DNA of 64,000 nt from Nitrospirota bacterium. GTDB taxonomy: Bacteria; Nitrospirota; Thermodesulfovibrionia; Thermodesulfovibrionales; JdFR-85. A program made the translations under genes and the position numbers. Within the stretch, counting starts at the first letter, position 1. Every line of letters starts with the position of its first letter. Below are positions 1,204 through 61,178 of the stretch, one piece after another. The notes under the pieces were generated by a model that had not been told where the DNA came from, ran no database searches, and saw only the letters and a list, made by a program, of their open reading frames with translations. The stretch lies in the NCBI GenBank assembly GCA_015484595.1, contig WFMM01000152.1:3842-67841 (forward strand), given 5' to 3'.

Positions 1204-3889
1204 TCATTCCACAACACTTCTTATACTTTTTCCCGCTTCCGCAGGGACAGGGCTCATTTCTGCCTATCTTCCTGCCTTTTTTAACAGGTTTTTTCGGGCC
1301 CTCCTGACCATTTCCCCGGTTAAAAACCAGCTTCTGCTCCTGTTTTCTTGATATCCTTTCAGCCTCCTCTTCTGACTGAACCTGTATCCTGAACAGACGG
1401 GTCAGGACCTCCTCTTTGATTCTTTCGGACATCTCGGTAAACATCTCGAAGGCTTCTTTTTTGTATTCCACAAGGGGGTCTTTCTGCCCGTAACCCCTCA
1501 AACCAATTCCCTCTTTCAGATGGTCCATAGCAAGAAGGTGATCCTTCCACTGGTTATCCACTACCTGAAGCATCACTATCCTCTCAAGGTAACGCATCAG
1601 GTCCTGACCTATCTCTTTTTCCTTCTCATCGTAAAAGTGGTTAAGCCTTTTTATTATCTCTTCCTTAAGTGCCTCCTGCCCCTTAAACTCATCAAGACCC
1701 TCTATCTTCAGACCAAAGATACCGTAAATGTTCTTTGAGAGTTCCTCAATTTCCCACTCTTCAGGGTGTCTGTCTTCAGGACAGTAATCATACACAAGGG
1801 CATCGACCACATCCTCTACCATCTCTAAGAGCCTGTCTTTCAGAGACTCGGTGGAGAGTATCTCTTTTCTGAAACGGTATATCTCTGTCCTCTGTTTGTT
1901 CATTACATCATCGTACTCAAGGAGGTGTTTTCTTATTTCAAAGTTGTGAGCCTCAACCCTTTTCTGGGCGTTCTCTATGGCCTTTGTCACCATTCTGTTT
2001 TCTATCGGTACATCCTCATCCATTCCAAGCTTGCCCATAAGACCTGATATCCTGTCAGAGCCGAATATCCTCATAAGGTCATCCTCAAGGGAGAGGTAAA
2101 ACCTTGAAGAACCAGGGTCACCCTGACGGCCTGAACGGCCTCGGAGCTGGTTGTCGATTCGCCTTGCCTCGTGTCTTTCGGTGCCGATTATATGAAGACC
2201 ACCTGCGGCCACTACCTTTTCCCTGTCACGCTCACATATCTCCCTGGCCTTTCTAAGGGCCTCGGCCTTTTCCTCCTCGGTTGGATCGTCCTTGCCCTTT
2301 AGGAACTCCTTTGCAAGCCCTTCAGGGTTACCACCAAGCACGATGTCCGTTCCTCTTCCAGCCATGTTTGTGGCAATGGTTACAGCTCCTGGACGGCCTG
2401 CCTGTGCAATAATCTCTGCTTCCTTTTCGTGATACTTTGCATTAAGAACAGAGTGTTTTATGCCCTTTTTCTTGAGCATCCTGCTAAGAAGCTCGGACTT
2501 TTCTATGGATATGGTTCCAACCAGAACAGGCTGCCCTCTTTTATGACACTCCTCTATTTCCTTTATAACTGCCTTGAACTTTGCCCTTTCGGTCTTGAAA
2601 ATCATATCAGGATGGTCAACCCTGATCATTGGCTTGTTGGTGGGGATGACCACCACATCGAGGTTGTAAATCTTGGCAAACTCCTCAGCCTCAGTGTCAG
2701 CAGTACCGGTCATGCCTGCGAGCTTTTTGTACATCCTGAAGTAGTTCTGAAATGTGATGGTTGCGAGGGTCTGGTTTTCACTTTCAATCCTTACTCCCTC
2801 TTTTGCCTCGATAGCCTGATGGAGCCCGTCAGACCAGCGCCTTCCGGGCATCAGTCTGCCAGTGAATTCATCCACTATCACGATCTTTCCGTCCTTAACT
2901 ACATAGTCCACATCCCTTTTAAACAGATGGTGAGCCTTGAGCCCCTGTAGCACATGATGAACAAGGTCAATGTGGGCGGGATCAAAGAGGTTTTCCACGC
3001 CAAGGAGCTTTTCTGCCTTTATGGCTCCCTCTTCTGTCAGGATTACGGTCCTTGCCTTTTCATCAATAGTAAAGTCCACATCCTTTTGTAGCTTTGGGAT
3101 GATCTTGTCTATCTTGTAGTATTTTCCAACCGACTCCTCGGAAGGCCCGGAGATAATAAGCGGCGTTCGTGCCTCGTCTATCAGGATGCTGTCCACCTCG
3201 TCCACAATGGCATAATTTAGTTCACGCTGGCAGTAGTCGTTTATGTCGTACTTCATGTTGTCTCTCAGGTAATCAAAGCCAAACTCGTTGTTCGTTCCAT
3301 AGGTGATGTCAGCCTGGTATGCCTCTTTTCTGCTACAGGGTCTCAGATGATTGTAGCGCGGGTCGTCAGCCCTGTATTCAGGGTCAAAAAGAAAGGATTC
3401 TTCATGCTGAATCACTCCAACCGAAAGCCCGAGGTGATGATAAATAGGCCCCATCCACTGGGCATCCCTCTTTGCAAGGTAATCGTTGACGGTTACCACA
3501 TGAACACCCTTCCCCTCAAGGGCATTGAGATAGACAGGAAGGGTTGCAACAAGGGTCTTACCTTCACCTGTCTTCATCTCAGCTATCTTTCCCTCGTGAA
3601 GCACTATGCCACCGATGAGCTGAACATCAAAGTGCCTCATGCCAAGGACACGCCTTGATGTCTCTCTTACAACGGCAAAGGCCTCGACGAGGAGGTCGTC
3701 AAGGGTCTCGCCTTTTTCAAGCCGCTCTTTGAACTGCAAGGTCTTTTTAGAAAGCTCCTCGTCAGAAAGCCTTGATATCTCAGGCTCAAGCTCGTTTATC
3801 CTGTGCACTATTGGCCAGAGCCTTTTCAGTTCTCGCTCGTTCTTTGTGCCAAAAACCTTCTTTATAATGGAAATCATCTCTAAGTCCAC
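1196..3889 (-). CDS. secA: Preprotein translocase ATPase SecA
   Basis: 897 aa. It has the DEAD-like motor motifs ([28 protein letters not shown]) and the C-terminal zinc finger [14 protein letters not shown]. Confidence 0.97.
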
Positions 3890-56010: not shown

Positions 56011-56235
56011 CTACCTTTTGGTTTTATGACACTTAAAACAGGCAAACTTTGGAGGGTGTTTTTTGCTTAAAGGGTTTTGAGCATCTTTTCCATGACATTC
56101 AAGACAGTCTTTCTCTAATAGGACCTGCCTGTGACTTTTGTCCTGAGGAATGGCAGGCACAGGCCTTCGGGGAAGAAGAAACAAAACCACTATTACTGCA
56201 AGCACAAACAGAACAAAAAGGGCAGTGTTTTTCAT
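56011..56235 (-). CDS. Small membrane-anchored dihaem c-type cytochrome
   Basis: 74 aa with an N-terminal TM (ALFVLFVLAVIVVLFLL) followed by CLECH and CFKCH. Confidence 0.6.
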   Translation of the reverse strand: MKNTALFVLFVLAVIVVLFLLPRRPVPAIPQDKSHRQVLLEKDCLECHGKDAQNPLSKKHPPKFACFKCHKTKR

Positions 56236-56256: not shown

Positions 56257-57396
56257 CTAATCCTCAAAGGCATGGCACTTGTAGAGGTCCTTGCCCAAAG
56301 GGTCTCCAAGGAGTTCTGCCCTGAAGCGGCAGCCACCACGGCACTCGTCCAGGAAGGCACATCCCTGGCATTTAAGCCCCTCAAGCCGAACAGGTGGGAT
56401 TCTCTGCCAGCATGTCTTTAGCCCCTCAGATATGTGGCCCACCGGTCTTTCAGCATAGAAGGCACATTTTGCCACAGAGCCATCAGGAAGCACCGAGCAA
56501 AGGTGAAGCCCGCAACCATAACCCTCACCACCACCGTGAAAGCCACCTCCAAAACCATATCTAAGGTATCTGCCTGCTACCTCTGGTGGCAGATAAAGAG
56601 AATGGTTTTCCTTCATTCTACCCCAGGAGCAGGGCACATCAACGGTCCATTCCTTGATGCCGAGGTCTTTAAGAAGTTTCTCCATATCGTCGAACTCATC
56701 AAGGTTTCCAGGATGAACCATGGTTGACACAGACACCGTAAAGCCAGACTCCTTTGCCCTTTTAAGGGCTGCTACGGTGGGTTCAAAGGTGCCCTGTCCT
56801 CGAAGGCTTTCGTGGCCTTTTTTCATCCCATCAAGGCTTATCTGGATCTCCTCTACATTGAGGCTTTCAAGCCTCTTTGGCGTAAGCAAAAGGCCATTTG
56901 TAAGTAGAACCTTTCTTAAGGGATAGTGCTTAAGAAAATCGTTCATTCTGTCAAACTCCCGATGCATAAGTGGTTCACCACCTGAGATGAGCACCCTGAG
57001 CCCCTGCATCTCTTCAAACTCCTCAAGCACCTTAAGGATCTGCTCAAAAGAAAGCTCCATTGCCTCTGGCTCACCCACATAGCAGTGACGGCAGCGGAGG
57101 TTGCATCGGTCGGTTATCAGAAGTTCAAGGTATCTTAGAGAAGGCTCAGGGCTTGCCTTGATGTGATGCCTGAGGGTCCTTGCAGGTTCGGTAACCAGTA
57201 TTCCTTCTTCGAGACAGTATTCAAGGAAATCCCTTTCATCGGTGTAACAACCCTGGGATTCGTAGCAGTTTTTTAGAAACTCAAAGGCCCTCTCATCAAG
57301 TTCGTAGAGTTCATCGGTTTTTATATTGTAAACCGAGGGGTGTTCCAGAAGACGCAGGATTACATGGGGGCCAAAATAGTATCTCTCAGTCTGAAT
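56257..57396 (-). CDS. Radical SAM/SPASM enzyme with a PqqD/RRE-like N-terminal domain; start codon unresolved (ATT proposed)
   Basis: The track ORF (56257-57078) starts at a GTG immediately after the CX3CX2C motif. My upstream translation reads ...SLRYLELLITDRCNLRCRHCYVGEPE. The frame is open up to the TGA at 57426-57424. The SPASM motif CQGCAFLDECRGGC is present at the C-terminus. Confidence 0.7.
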   Translation of the reverse strand: MQTERYYFGPHVILRLLEHPSVYNIKTDELYELDERAFEFLKNCYESQGCYTDERDFLEYCLEEGILVTEPARTLRHHIKASPEPSLRYLELLITDRCNLRCRHCYVGEPEAMELSFEQILKVLEEFEEMQGLRVLISGGEPLMHREFDRMNDFLKHYPLRKVLLTNGLLLTPKRLESLNVEEIQISLDGMKKGHESLRGQGTFEPTVAALKRAKESGFTVSVSTMVHPGNLDEFDDMEKLLKDLGIKEWTVDVPCSWGRMKENHSLYLPPEVAGRYLRYGFGGGFHGGGEGYGCGLHLCSVLPDGSVAKCAFYAERPVGHISEGLKTCWQRIPPVRLEGLKCQGCAFLDECRGGCRFRAELLGDPLGKDLYKCHAFED

Positions 57397-58387
57397 AGTA
57401 AAACTCCTCCTTTGGTGTTCGGGTCATCAGTTCCCTGACAGCCTCTAAGGGGGCCTTACCGTGATGAAGCACCAGATAGACCTGCTCTACAATGGGCATC
57501 TCCACGGACATCTTTTTAGACAGTTCATAGGCAGAGACCGATGTCTCCACACCTTCAGCCACAGCGGTCATGCCAGAGAGAATCTCATCAAGGGTCATGC
57601 CTTTGCCGAGTTTTACCCCAACAGTGTAGTTTCTTGAGAGTGCACCTGTGCAGGTTAAAACCAGATCTCCTATACCGCTTAAGCCAGAGAAGGTCTTCTC
57701 CTCAGCCCCCATCTTTACACCAAGCCTTGTTATCTCGGCAAGCCCTCTTGTGATAAGGGCTGCCCTTGCATTAAGGCCAAGACCAAGGCCATCAGAGATA
57801 CCCGAGGCAATGGCTATTACATTCTTTAATGCACCACCAAGCTCAACACCAAGCACGTCATGATGAGTGTAAACCCGGAAGTAATCGGTATTGAAGATCT
57901 CCTGAAGCAGGAGTCCAAGAAAACGGTCCTTCACAGCAAGTGTCAAAGCGGTGGGGAGTTTCCTTATTACCTCTCTGGCAAAGCTTGGACCTGATAGCAC
58001 TGCCACAGGGTGATGGGTAATCTCTGAAAGCACTCCTGAGACAGTAAGCAGGGTCCCCTTTTCTATACCCTTTGAGGCACTTATAATTACGGCATCCTCT
58101 TCCAGGTATTTTGTTGCCTCTTTGAAAACAGAACGGACATACTGGGTGGGCACAACGCAGAGGACATATCGGGTTCTGTAAAGGGCCTCTTCAAAGCTAT
58201 AGGTGACCTTTATGTTATCAGGAAGTTCAACATCGGGAAGATAAACCCTGTTGAGGCGTGTCTGATGCATCTCTTCGGCAAGCTCTTTTTCATGAACCCA
58301 GAGGGAGACATCATAGCCCTTTTCAGCAAGCAGCACCGCAAGTGCCGTGCCCCAGCTTCCAGCACCTATGACAGCAATATAACTCAT
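57386..58387 (-). CDS. gpsA: NAD(P)H-dependent glycerol-3-phosphate dehydrogenase
   Basis: 333 aa with an N-terminal GAGSWGTALA motif and the typical GpsA core (GALKNVIAIA). Confidence 0.93.
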   Translation of the reverse strand: MSYIAVIGAGSWGTALAVLLAEKGYDVSLWVHEKELAEEMHQTRLNRVYLPDVELPDNIKVTYSFEEALYRTRYVLCVVPTQYVRSVFKEATKYLEEDAVIISASKGIEKGTLLTVSGVLSEITHHPVAVLSGPSFAREVIRKLPTALTLAVKDRFLGLLLQEIFNTDYFRVYTHHDVLGVELGGALKNVIAIASGISDGLGLGLNARAALITRGLAEITRLGVKMGAEEKTFSGLSGIGDLVLTCTGALSRNYTVGVKLGKGMTLDEILSGMTAVAEGVETSVSAYELSKKMSVEMPIVEQVYLVLHHGKAPLEAVRELMTRTPKEEFYYSD

Positions 58388-58388
58388 C

Positions 58389-58607
58389 TCATGCAGTTAT
58401 TTCTTTGAGTTCTACGGGGAGTTTTTCAATGATTAGTTTTTTCAAGGACAATTTCTTGCTTGCATTATCTATATCTATTCCAACAATATTACCATTTTCG
58501 TCGTAATCAATAACTATGCCTTCTGCAACATCTTCGCTGATCACACTGTTTTTTTCAGATAAATCAATATATAACGAATCAGTTTCAGGATAGTATTTCA
58601 GTCTCAT
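58389..58607 (-). CDS. DUF2283-domain protein
   Basis: 72 aa with the family pattern YYPETDSLYIDLSE...IVIDYDENGNIVGIDI. Confidence 0.7.
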   Translation of the reverse strand: MRLKYYPETDSLYIDLSEKNSVISEDVAEGIVIDYDENGNIVGIDIDNASKKLSLKKLIIEKLPVELKEITA

Positions 58608-58810
58608 TTTTTTCTTACTGCTTCTCCACCTCTGTTGAGTTTTAATAATTCTAAAGCACCACTCTTTTTAATTACAATGACCCTTGCCGAAAGCCCCGAC
58701 ACCTCTATCCCAAAAGTCGGGGATGAAGGCAAGAATAATAATAAAAAATTTTTCATTATCCTTGCATTGGAAGCCCCGACCTCTGGTCGGAGAGCTTCAC
58801 TTTAATAATA

Positions 58811-59134
58811 TCACACTGATGAGATTATTTTACCCTTATTTTTAATCTCCCAGACTAAAGGATCATTATCATTAAAATCTTCAGGTCTGAAAGGAACCGG
58901 TTCTATTCTTTTGTCAATCTTTGAGGCTATCTTCATCAGTCTGAGCCTTTCCTTGTATCTATTTTCAGTAAAGTCAGGAGAAACTACAGCAATGTCTATA
59001 TCACTAAATTCATCTGACTCTTTTGATGCATAAGAGCCATACAGGTAAACTTTATTTATTTTTATGCCTTCCTTCTTAAGATAATCTATAAACTTTTTAA
59101 TTACAATTATAGTTTTATCTTTCCTTTCAGCCAT
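58811..59134 (-). CDS. Minimal nucleotidyltransferase (MNT), HEPN/MNT module
   Basis: 107 aa with the pol-beta NTase motif YGSYASKESDEFSDIDIAV. Confidence 0.8.
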   Translation of the reverse strand: MAERKDKTIIVIKKFIDYLKKEGIKINKVYLYGSYASKESDEFSDIDIAVVSPDFTENRYKERLRLMKIASKIDKRIEPVPFRPEDFNDNDPLVWEIKNKGKIISSV

Positions 59135-59499
59135 TGGTATATCCTTTTTATATCATTTAGTTTTTCTTCAGTAAAATTTTTTGTGCAAATCTTTCTAAAA
59201 GTTCTTTTTAAATCTGGATATCTTGCTTCAATATTAAAGGATGTTATCTCTATCATTTTATCAGATAGTTCAGTTGAGAGTTCAATTTTTGCAAGTTCAG
59301 CAAGCCTTGTTAAGTTATGTATAGGTGGTGCATGTTTTTTGTTTTCTAACACATAAAGTGCCTTAAGGAGTTTTTCAATACACAGGTGTCCGAAAAATAA
59401 TGAATAAGAATAGTCACCTTTTTCATAAAGATGCTCGGCAACCTTGAGTGCATCTTCTGACTCATTTAACCAGTATTTAACAATTTCTTCTGTATTCAT
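59107..59499 (-). CDS. HEPN-domain protein (toxin partner of the MNT)
   Basis: 130 aa. It is a helical HEPN pattern ending ...FNIEARYPD and overlaps the MNT gene by 28 nt. Confidence 0.8.
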   Translation of the reverse strand: MNTEEIVKYWLNESEDALKVAEHLYEKGDYSYSLFFGHLCIEKLLKALYVLENKKHAPPIHNLTRLAELAKIELSTELSDKMIEITSFNIEARYPDLKRTFRKICTKNFTEEKLNDIKRIYQWLKGKIKL

Positions 59500-59501
59500 T
59501 A

Positions 59502-61178
59502 TTAAGAAATCTTAGATTTTATCTTCTTCCATGTATCCCTGAGGGTTACGGTGCGGTTGAAGACTAATTTTTCCTCCGAGGAGTCAAGGTCAACTGCGAA
59601 ATACCCAAGCCTTAAAAACTGAAACCTCTCACCAGGGCGGGCGTTTTTAAGGGATGGTTCAGCCTTACAGTTCGTAAGTATCTTAAGGGAATCGGGATTA
59701 AGACAGTCTATAAAATCAGGGCATTCCTTTTTGTCATCAGGGTTTGGCACCCTGAAAAGCCTGTCATAAAGCCTTACCTCTACATCCATGGCATGTCGGG
59801 CAGATACCCAGTGAAGGGTTGCCTTTACCTTTTTCTGCTGGTTTGAGCCACTTTTTGATTCAGGGTCATAAGTGCAGTAAAGAGTGGTAATACGGCCTGT
59901 CTCAGGGTCTTTTTCATAGTCTTCACACTTTATTATGTAGGCATGTTTTAGCCTTACCTCACGACCAGGTGCGAGTCGATAGAATTTTTTAGGCGGCTCT
60001 TCCATAAAGTCGTCTGCCTCGATATAAAGCTCTCTTGAAAAGGGCACCTCCCGTGTTCCTGCAGTCGGGTCTTCAGGATTGTTAATGGCCTCTACATACT
60101 CAACTCTGTCTTCTGGATAGTTGGTGATAATCACCCTTATTGGGTTCAGAACCACCATTACCCTTGGGCATCGTTTGTTAAGGTCATCTCTGAGGCAGTG
60201 TTCAAGGAGTTCAAAATCCACGATGCTGTTTGCCTTGGCCACACCTATGCGGTCACAGAAGTCCCTTATAGCCTCCGGTGTATAACCCCTTCTACGCATC
60301 CCTGCTATGGTTGGCATCCGGGGGTCATCCCAGCCAGAGACATGACCTTCTTCAACCAGACGGGTGAGTTTTCTCTTGCTAAGCACTGTATAGCTCAGGT
60401 TAAGTCTTGCAAACTCTATCTGCTGAGGATGATAAAGCTCAAGCTGGTCAAGAAACCAGTCGTAAAGAGGACGATGGTCCTCAAACTCAAGGGTGCATAG
60501 CGAGTGCGTAATTCCTTCAAAGGAATCTGAAAGGGGATGAGCAAAGTCATAGGTAGGGTATATGCACCATCGGTCACCAGTTCGATGGTGTGGTTTTTTG
60601 ATAATGCGATAAATTACAGGGTCGCGCATGTTTATATTGCCCGAGGCCATATCTATTTTTGCACGAAGAACCTTCTGCCCTTCATCAAACTCACCTTTAC
60701 GCATCCTTTCAAATAGATCCAGATTTTCCTCTACCGAACGGTTACGGTATGGGCTTTCCTTACCAGGTTCAGTAAGGGTGCCACGGTATTTGCGTATCTC
60801 TTCGGCAGAGAGGTCGTCCACATAGGCCTTTCCCTTTTTTATCAACTCCACAGCGCATTCGTACAGTCGTTCAAAGTAGTCAGAGGCATAGTAAAGGCGG
60901 TCTTCCCAATCAAAGCCAAGCCAGCGAACATCCTCTATTATGGCACGAACATATTCCTCTTCTTCCTTTTCAGGATTTGTATCATCAAATCTGAGATTGC
61001 ATAGTCCACCGTATTTCTCAGCAATACCAAAGTTCAGACAGATAGACTTGGCATGCCCGATGTGAAGATAGCCATTGGGTTCTGGAGGGAAACGGGTATG
61101 AACCCTGCCACCGTATTTGCCGGTTTCAAGGTCTTCTTCGATTATTTTTTCTATAAAGTTTTTTGTTTCCTTTTCCAT
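59502..61178 (-). CDS. glnS: Glutamine--tRNA ligase
   Basis: 558 aa containing [17 protein letters not shown] (the HIGH motif) and VLSKRK, with a GlnRS-type C-terminal anticodon-binding barrel. Confidence 0.95.

Follow-up and report, generated by a model that had tools for sequence, protein, structure and literature searches.

Comparative sequence analysis indicates that a radical SAM/SPASM gene on the minus strand of a Nitrospirota genome is intact and functional, and that its translation very probably begins at an ATT codon (57396-57394), to which ribosomes would be directed by an extended Shine-Dalgarno (SD) sequence, AAGGAGGAG, located in the tail of the overlapping upstream gene gpsA. 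The gene lies in a stretch of 64,000 nucleotides (nt), hereafter the window, that spans positions 3,842 to 67,841 of contig WFMM01000152.1 (assembly GCA_015484595.1). All coordinates below are those of the window.

The radical SAM frame follows a TGA at 57426-57424 and runs through 115 sense codons (57423..57079) without ATG, GTG or TTG. The first canonical start, the GTG at 57078, stands directly 3′ of the codons for CNLRCRHC-Y. A preliminary description of this DNA had observed that no canonical start precedes this GTG, that starting there deletes the CX3CX2C cluster, and that an ATT lies 7 nt after AAGGAGGAG within the last gpsA codons; our reading of the minus strand confirmed these observations and all of their coordinates. 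Among internal codons of the long open reading frames (ORFs) of the window, 5.0% are ATG, GTG or TTG, which gives p ~0.003 for one given stretch of 115 codons without them. Eight of the 51 long ORFs include a stretch of 105 or more codons free of these starts, and the length of the run by itself is therefore unremarkable. The telling feature is its location at the 5′ end of the gene, between the in-frame stop and the catalytic motif.

Several near-cognate codons occur in the start-free stretch (ATT 57396, ATC 57360, CTG 57357 and 57348, ATA 57324, and more downstream). The ATT is the sole ATT, ATC, ATA or CTG codon between the in-frame stop and the conserved RYY motif described below. It is separated from AAGGAGGAG, which corresponds to gpsA codons Lys-Glu-Glu, by the 7-nt spacer TTTTACT (57403-57397). 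Seven contiguous bases of AAGGAGGAG are complementary to the canonical anti-SD sequence of the 16S 3′ end. After AAGGAGGAG the gpsA tail reads TTT TAC TAT TCA GAC and ends at the TGA at 57388-57386. The RNA around the start was predicted to be no more structured than shuffled sequence (z = +0.99), with the ATT unpaired in the predicted fold.

A search of 5.8 billion proteins with the open frame as query matched radical SAM/SPASM proteins of Nitrospirota/Thermodesulfovibrionales, 375-385 amino acids (aa) long and covering ~96% of the frame. In the alignment, the N-termini of P0003, P0004, P0007, P0008 (GTG start), P0013 and P0015 coincide with the ATT column, and the remaining orthologs begin within a few residues of it. 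Conserved sequence starts with (R/K)-Y-(Y/F)-(L/F)-(S/G), then P, encoded in the window from 57384 onward, and the orthologs begin 1-4 codons ahead of these residues. This bears on initiation at a downstream near-cognate codon (ATC 57360, CTG 57357 or 57348, or ATA 57324), which would give a protein 12-24 residues shorter. Although these codons are in frame, none has an SD-like sequence at suitable spacing in the stretch that was read, and they are not kept as near-cognates in four start-less relatives (L004, L011, L039 and L059). Moreover, both the family-conserved motif and the first predicted β-strand (residues 6-8) lie upstream of them, and orthologs begin earlier. We regard a downstream start as very unlikely. 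The earlier proposal of a non-canonical start coupled to gpsA, at ATT or at a downstream CTG or ATC, thus holds for the ATT on comparative evidence, with the coupling inferred, and fails for the downstream codons, which the conserved motif precedes.

To place the ATT in the family, we compiled a survey of 163 loci: 160 retrieved from genome and metagenome collections, plus the window, L001 and L002. A canonical start was present at or just before the conserved motif in 152 loci (145 ATG and 7 GTG) of the 162 with an upstream in-frame stop. The other ten lack one: the window and, with their aa identity to it, L001 and L002 (95%), L003 (89%), L004 (69%), and L083, L059, L020, L011 and L039 (59-61%). 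L083 was the one further ATT locus from a metagenome scan in which, among the matches listed, relatives were at most 62% identical. Every one of the ten start-less loci overlaps the gpsA tail and has within it an in-frame ATT (plus one ATC), 4-7 nt downstream of AAGGAGGAG. L164 and L165 (protein P0035), two contigs of one further ATT lineage, were found outside the survey; in these and in all ten start-less loci the ATT occupies the window position or lies one codon upstream. P0088 was considered as a further truncated case of this type and rejected: its DNA has a normal upstream ATG and no gpsA. The association with gpsA is itself rare, gpsA being upstream in 14 of the 163 loci, with none nearby in the other 149. 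In a neighbour-joining tree of the 60 best-scoring loci, which did not include L039 and L059, the ATT genes fall in one 12-member clade together with L005, L006, L007 and L088.

Within this gpsA-linked clade the C-terminal GpsA motif ...L-K-E-E-F-Y-Y is conserved, and the radical SAM frame of every ATT-type locus reads AGG AGG AGT T(T/C)(T/G), then ATT. Around the start the frame reads ACT ATT CAG in the window and L001-L003, TTT ATT ACG in L004, TCT ATT ACT in L039 and TCG ATC ATT CAT in L059; in L011, L020, L083 and L164 it reads TCT ATT ATT GAG, interlocked with the gpsA TGA. The spacing between AAGGAGGAG and ATT is kept at 4 or 7 nt, while the distance to the gpsA stop varies, which favours SD-directed initiation over re-initiation near the stop. 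Clade members without the gpsA overlap use ATG, GTG or TTG. L005 has an ATG 4 nt after the gpsA stop, L007 an ATG after a spacer, L088 a GTG ~90 nt downstream of gpsA and L163 a TTG 3 nt after the stop; a TTG at this distance is also the start of P0001, which among the proteins called at full length is the closest relative. In L006, which does overlap gpsA, ATT ATA is followed two codons later by a GTG. The coordinates of the features in the window are collected in Table 1.

Table 1. Features of the radical SAM/SPASM locus in the window.
Feature	Coordinates	Strand	Basis or remarks
Proposed full-length radical SAM/SPASM coding sequence	56257..57396	-	ATT start, 379 codons, TAG stop at 56259-56257; from translation, ortholog lengths and alignment
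Proposed initiation codon, ATT	57394..57396	-	Sole near-cognate upstream of RYY; in-frame ATT kept in start-less relatives
Extended SD sequence, AAGGAGGAG	57404..57412	-	gpsA Lys-Glu-Glu codons; 7 nt upstream of ATT
gpsA, NAD(P)H-dependent glycerol-3-phosphate dehydrogenase	57386..58387	-	Pfam NAD_Gly3P_dh_N, NAD_Gly3P_dh_C and GPD_NAD_C_bact
11-nt overlap of gpsA 3′ end and radical SAM 5′ end	57386..57396	-	gpsA ..TAT TCA GAC TGA; radical SAM ATT CAG ACT GAG
Predicted N-terminal winged-helix (RRE-like) domain, residues 1-63	57208..57396	-	AlphaFold2 model; lost if the start is GTG 57078
CNLRCRHC, radical SAM CX3CX2C [4Fe-4S]/SAM-binding motif	57082..57105	-	Regular expression; Pfam PF04055, E = 5e-25; residues 98-105
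Miscalled start GTG	57076..57078	-	Internal Val codon; first canonical start codon of the frame
SPASM cysteine motifs	56329..56514	-	CX10GX4C at 56464-56514 and CX2CX5CX3C at 56329-56370; regular expression

The synonymous sites of the gpsA tail appear to be selected to keep both the ribosome-binding site (GAG GAG) and the ATT (through TAT). Lys-Glu-Glu is encoded as AAG GAG GAG in 8 of 8 ATT lineages (11 of 11 loci), whereas it is degraded to AAG GAA GAA or AAG GAA GAG in 4 of 5 relatives with an ATG, GTG or TTG start (Fisher p 0.003-0.007). AAAGAAGAA is a synonymous form of AAGGAGGAG that retains Lys-Glu-Glu in gpsA. Given the Glu codon usage of each gene itself, GAG GAG would occur jointly in all eight lineages with a chance of ~0.009. 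Elsewhere in gpsA, TAT is used for Tyr in 0 of 10 codons in L039 and 1 of 10 in L164, yet the tail Tyr codons that create the ATT are TAT in both; judged by this codon usage, the two are a clear example of a synonymous site set by the start codon of a neighbouring gene. In L059, Tyr-Tyr is replaced by Asp-His and the other frame still reads ATC ATT. For the seven lineages with a Tyr-Tyr tail, the joint chance of ATT is ~0.002, a rough hand estimate from TAT fractions with ~0.3 assumed for T as the next base.

Some considerations weigh against initiation at the ATT. The case for it is drawn from sequence comparison, and every relative is a metagenome assembly or a metagenome-assembled genome, none an isolate. 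The position is not rigid, with the exact start 6 nt after AAGGAGG in some lineages and 9 nt, one codon further on, in others. In addition, the ATT sits in Tyr codons of a conserved gpsA motif, and part of its conservation comes from gpsA coding; at typical codon usage an ATT would be expected there with a probability of ~0.5-0.8 per lineage. Finally, the statistics on synonymous sites and on covariation with the SD ignore phylogeny and are based on 8 and 5 lineages, although most of the lineages compared have diverged to saturation at synonymous sites.

Damage to the start offers another account of the missing codon, and the preliminary description had allowed for it as a pseudogene or a sequencing error. 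In the first case an ancestral ATG would have mutated, leaving the gene dead or expressed only as a cluster-less product from GTG 57078. The predominance of canonical starts among the orthologs at this position fits such a loss, as do the truncated products given by gene callers (P0002, 273 aa; P0006, 349; P0014, 373; P0017, 369; P0035, 355). However, the start-less state is common to eight lineages with 59-96% aa identity, none of which has a frameshift, indel or stop within the 106 N-terminal codons. For the 106 codons from ATT to GTG 57078, the ratio of non-synonymous to synonymous substitution rates (dN/dS, Nei-Gojobori) is 0.15-0.22, and for the remainder of the gene it is 0.09-0.13 in unsaturated comparisons; by these ratios purifying selection acts on the N-terminal region. 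Structure prediction gives the N-terminal domain with high confidence, and the product from GTG 57078 would be without all three cluster cysteines. A pseudogene is accordingly highly improbable. It had been suggested that canonical ortholog starts at this position would point to a pseudogene; the alignment does show many ATG and GTG codons there, yet in view of these data a pseudogene is not indicated.

A sequencing or assembly error hiding a canonical start can be set aside with still greater assurance. The sequence offers a conceivable site for one, a C5 homopolymer with an out-of-frame ATG at 57369-57363, but this ATG is directly followed by TAA, and an upstream indel cannot repair its frame to the downstream gene. 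L001 (from ENA) and L002 (from Logan) derive from different samples and differ from the window mostly at synonymous sites; both have the open frame and no canonical start. These two contigs and L003 (89% identity) agree with the window base for base from the SD through the ATT, with the frame unchanged, and the architecture is repeated in more distant lineages. The preliminary suggestion of damage or error is thus contradicted by independent assemblies and by eight diverged lineages free of indels and stops.

The out-of-frame ATG-TAA (57360-57365, minus strand) sits in the radical SAM codons for Pro-His-Val-Ile; L003 has ATG TAG instead, and the element is absent from L004 and beyond. It was considered as a start-stop element and rejected, being confined to the closest relatives and having no SD-like sequence that could be seen on reading the stretch.

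A further alternative would be a prfB-like programmed +1 frameshift at GAG-TTT-T (57406-57400), stimulated by the neighbouring SD-like AGGAGG, carrying ribosomes from gpsA into the radical SAM frame and yielding a GpsA-radical SAM fusion. A T follows the gpsA-frame TTT in the window, L001-L003 and L004, and could let tRNA-Phe pair again one base on; the AGGAGG lies 2 nt upstream (AGGAGG-AG-TTT-T, 57400-57412), and the +1 frame is open from 57423. L011, L020, L039, L059, L083 and L164 instead have TTC-T and equally lack a canonical start, which leaves TTT-T in just 2 of the 8 lineage groups. An ordinary Tyr codon, neither a stop nor rare, would occupy the A site. Outside the clade the orthologs include no GpsA fusion, and most surveyed loci of the family have no gpsA nearby. 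There is little prospect that such a frameshift accounts for the start-less frame, and initiation at the ATT remains our preferred explanation.

Translated from the ATT, the full protein has 379 aa and comprises a predicted winged-helix domain resembling the recognition element (RRE) of ribosomally synthesized and post-translationally modified peptide (RiPP) systems, a radical SAM core and a SPASM domain. The AlphaFold2 model has a mean predicted local distance difference test score (pLDDT) of 85 and a predicted template modelling score of 0.87, with pLDDT 80-93 for residues 1-63. The predicted N-terminal fold consists of strands at residues 6-8, 12-16, 20-24 and 29-32, then helices at 35-44 and 55-63; residues 1-106 had no Pfam match. 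The core matches PF04055 with 89 bits against a cut-off of 29.5. No Pfam SPASM match was obtained at E ≤ 0.1, and the assignment to this group rests on the cysteine motif, in which the seven-Cys pattern is complete (residues 295-311 and 343-356, and a final Cys at 374), and on matches of the predicted fold to anSME, SuiB and PqqE.

In sequence, the nearest relatives of known structure are SkfB, BlsE, MoaA and PqqE (E-values 1e-14 to 1e-9), and by structure comparison the whole model matches the RiPP maturases SkfB and SuiB over its full length. RRE-containing RiPP maturases (SkfB 6efn, SuiB 5v1t, AlbA, PqqE) are thus the best matches in both sequence and structure, and the order of their parts, an N-terminal winged helix, the CX3CX2C core and the C-terminal auxiliary-cluster cysteines, is that predicted for the window protein. 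However, its identity to these enzymes is only 14-21%, the analysis found no precursor peptide, and the clade shows no conserved gene neighbourhood. All NCBIfam equivalog matches fell far below their cut-offs (~90 bits versus 265-850), which gave no family-level assignment; for this reason the protein is placed in an uncharacterised subfamily.

The unusual start has consequences for annotation. Gene finders restricted to ATG, GTG and TTG cut the gene short, and public databases therefore hold wrong models for the whole clade: its database entries are all 5′-truncated to the first internal ATG, GTG or TTG, at the lengths given above. P0002, the closest database protein (96% identical over the covered part; contigs L001/L002), is called from the same GTG as the window ORF, whose 273-aa product had nothing on record in an exact look-up. 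The P0002 model and the window call lose the whole CX3CX2C motif, while P0006 (L004), P0035 (L164/L165), P0014 and P0017 (L059 and L011, paired by N-terminal sequence only) lose part of the N-terminal domain.

Other bacteria initiate poorly at AUU, a codon discriminated against by initiation factor 3 (IF3). In the mechanism we propose, gpsA and the radical SAM gene would be co-transcribed, and the extended SD within the Lys-Glu-Glu codons would place the ribosome on the ATT. Ribosomes translating the end of gpsA would keep the ribosome-binding site unfolded, allowing direct loading on this internal site; re-initiation after gpsA has been completed is the alternative. Initiation at AUU would then hold output of the radical SAM enzyme constitutively low relative to GpsA and make it sensitive to initiation-factor status. 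From the sequence we infer initiation at the ATT with formylmethionine, low IF3-dependent expression and coupling to gpsA.

Starts of this kind have precedents. In E. coli, infC and pcnB have confirmed AUU starts, and output from near-cognate ATH/AUU codons is ~1-2% of that from AUG (bioRxiv 10.1101/063800). The conserved AUU/AUA starts of S. aureus (cvfC1, ccpN and infC) all have an extended SD and yield ~10% of AUG output, with modulation by IF3 (PMC13009471), and in Listeria RsbW an ATG-to-ATT change lowers translation (PMC13068326).

The window gene resembles E. coli infC and pcnB in being a functional, conserved gene whose sole available start is AUU, an inefficient codon that, through IF3 discrimination, limits expression in those genes (bioRxiv 10.1101/063800; Binns & Masters 2002, as cited in PMC13009471). 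The sequence-level hallmarks of AUU genes of the infC/pcnB type are present: no canonical start, an AUU ~4-10 nt after an SD, and conservation across species with the coding region under purifying selection. It differs from both in encoding a radical SAM/SPASM enzyme of uncultivated Thermodesulfovibrionales/Nitrospirota and in having its start and SD within the coding sequence of the upstream gene. Unlike infC, it has no evident autoregulatory logic. With cvfC1 (AUU), ccpN (AUA) and infC (AUA) of S. aureus and B. subtilis it shares the pairing of a weak start with a long SD, kept between species; AAGGAGGAG stands ahead of the ATT in 11 of 11 loci of the clade, comparable to the extended SDs of those genes. 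Phylum and gene are different, however, and here the SD is also constrained as gpsA Lys-Glu-Glu codons. By analogy, the window gene would behave as one of the infC/pcnB and cvfC1/ccpN class, in which AUU or AUA starts are paired with strong SDs.

Coupled overlapping gene pairs (NTGA, -4, -1 and -8 nt) offer another parallel, being co-directional with the downstream ribosome-binding site inside the upstream ORF (PMC12548453). In L011, L020, L083 and L164 the ATT-ATT-GA arrangement interlocks start and stop codons as in such pairs. In contrast to them, the start is ATT rather than NTG, and the 11-nt overlap in the window is a spacing with weaker reported re-initiation coupling, coupling being weaker at larger overlaps (PMC12548453).

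The surroundings of the gene were also inspected, and a neighbourhood comparison found no conserved small neighbour or partner gene within the gpsA-linked clade. A 74-aa ORF (56011-56235, minus strand) starts 21 nt after the radical SAM stop and contains an N-terminal hydrophobic helix and the motifs CLECH and CFKCH. It scores 18.3 bits against Pfam Paired_CXXCH_1 (cut-off 20.6) and could encode a small membrane-anchored dihaem cytochrome c; gene calls include it for the window and L001 and lack it for L002, L163 and L164. Outside the gpsA-linked clade, the commonest neighbour of the family is a divergently transcribed Cys-rich ORF of ~120 aa, in ~105 of 163 loci (for example L009 2109-2477, minus strand), at a median distance of ~105 nt from the radical SAM gene. 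It carries motifs such as C..FC.YFKP, C..CPFY...CDF and PCGGF, with no Pfam match and no homolog in the window, and may be a functional partner or substrate of the radical SAM family. Between glnS (59502-61178) and gpsA, the window contains three minus-strand ORFs (58389-59499): HEPN (59107-59499), an overlapping nucleotidyltransferase (58811-59134) and DUF2283 (58389-58607). These look like an inserted cassette of the toxin-antitoxin type; in L164 a tRNA-synthetase gene directly adjoins gpsA.

Taken together, our results reveal no new mechanism and describe a new conserved case of a known phenomenon, the ATT starts of the infC/pcnB type. They add a conserved ATT-initiated gene beyond the model organisms to a well-supported bacterial list that is short (infC, pcnB and a few Firmicutes genes), and a comparative selection signal on the synonymous sites of an overlapping gene is unusual. 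The standout features are a start and ribosome-binding site wholly inside the conserved C-terminal codons of gpsA, their persistence throughout the clade and the systematic truncation in annotation. A single clade that pairs ATT with a full SD in some members and ATG, GTG or TTG with a degraded SD in others could serve as a natural test of SD strength offsetting weak starts. A bolder and doubtful interpretation is that the ATT, rather than being an accident of overlap that is tolerated, is a selected expression throttle, maintained since the common ancestor of a thermophilic Thermodesulfovibrionales clade, with the LKEEFYY codons under dual selection for the GpsA protein and for the ribosome-binding site and start of the next gene, and with a low radical SAM:GpsA ratio responsive to IF3 and growth state. 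If that were true, it might link the RRE-radical SAM-SPASM enzyme functionally to glycerol-3-phosphate or lipid metabolism.

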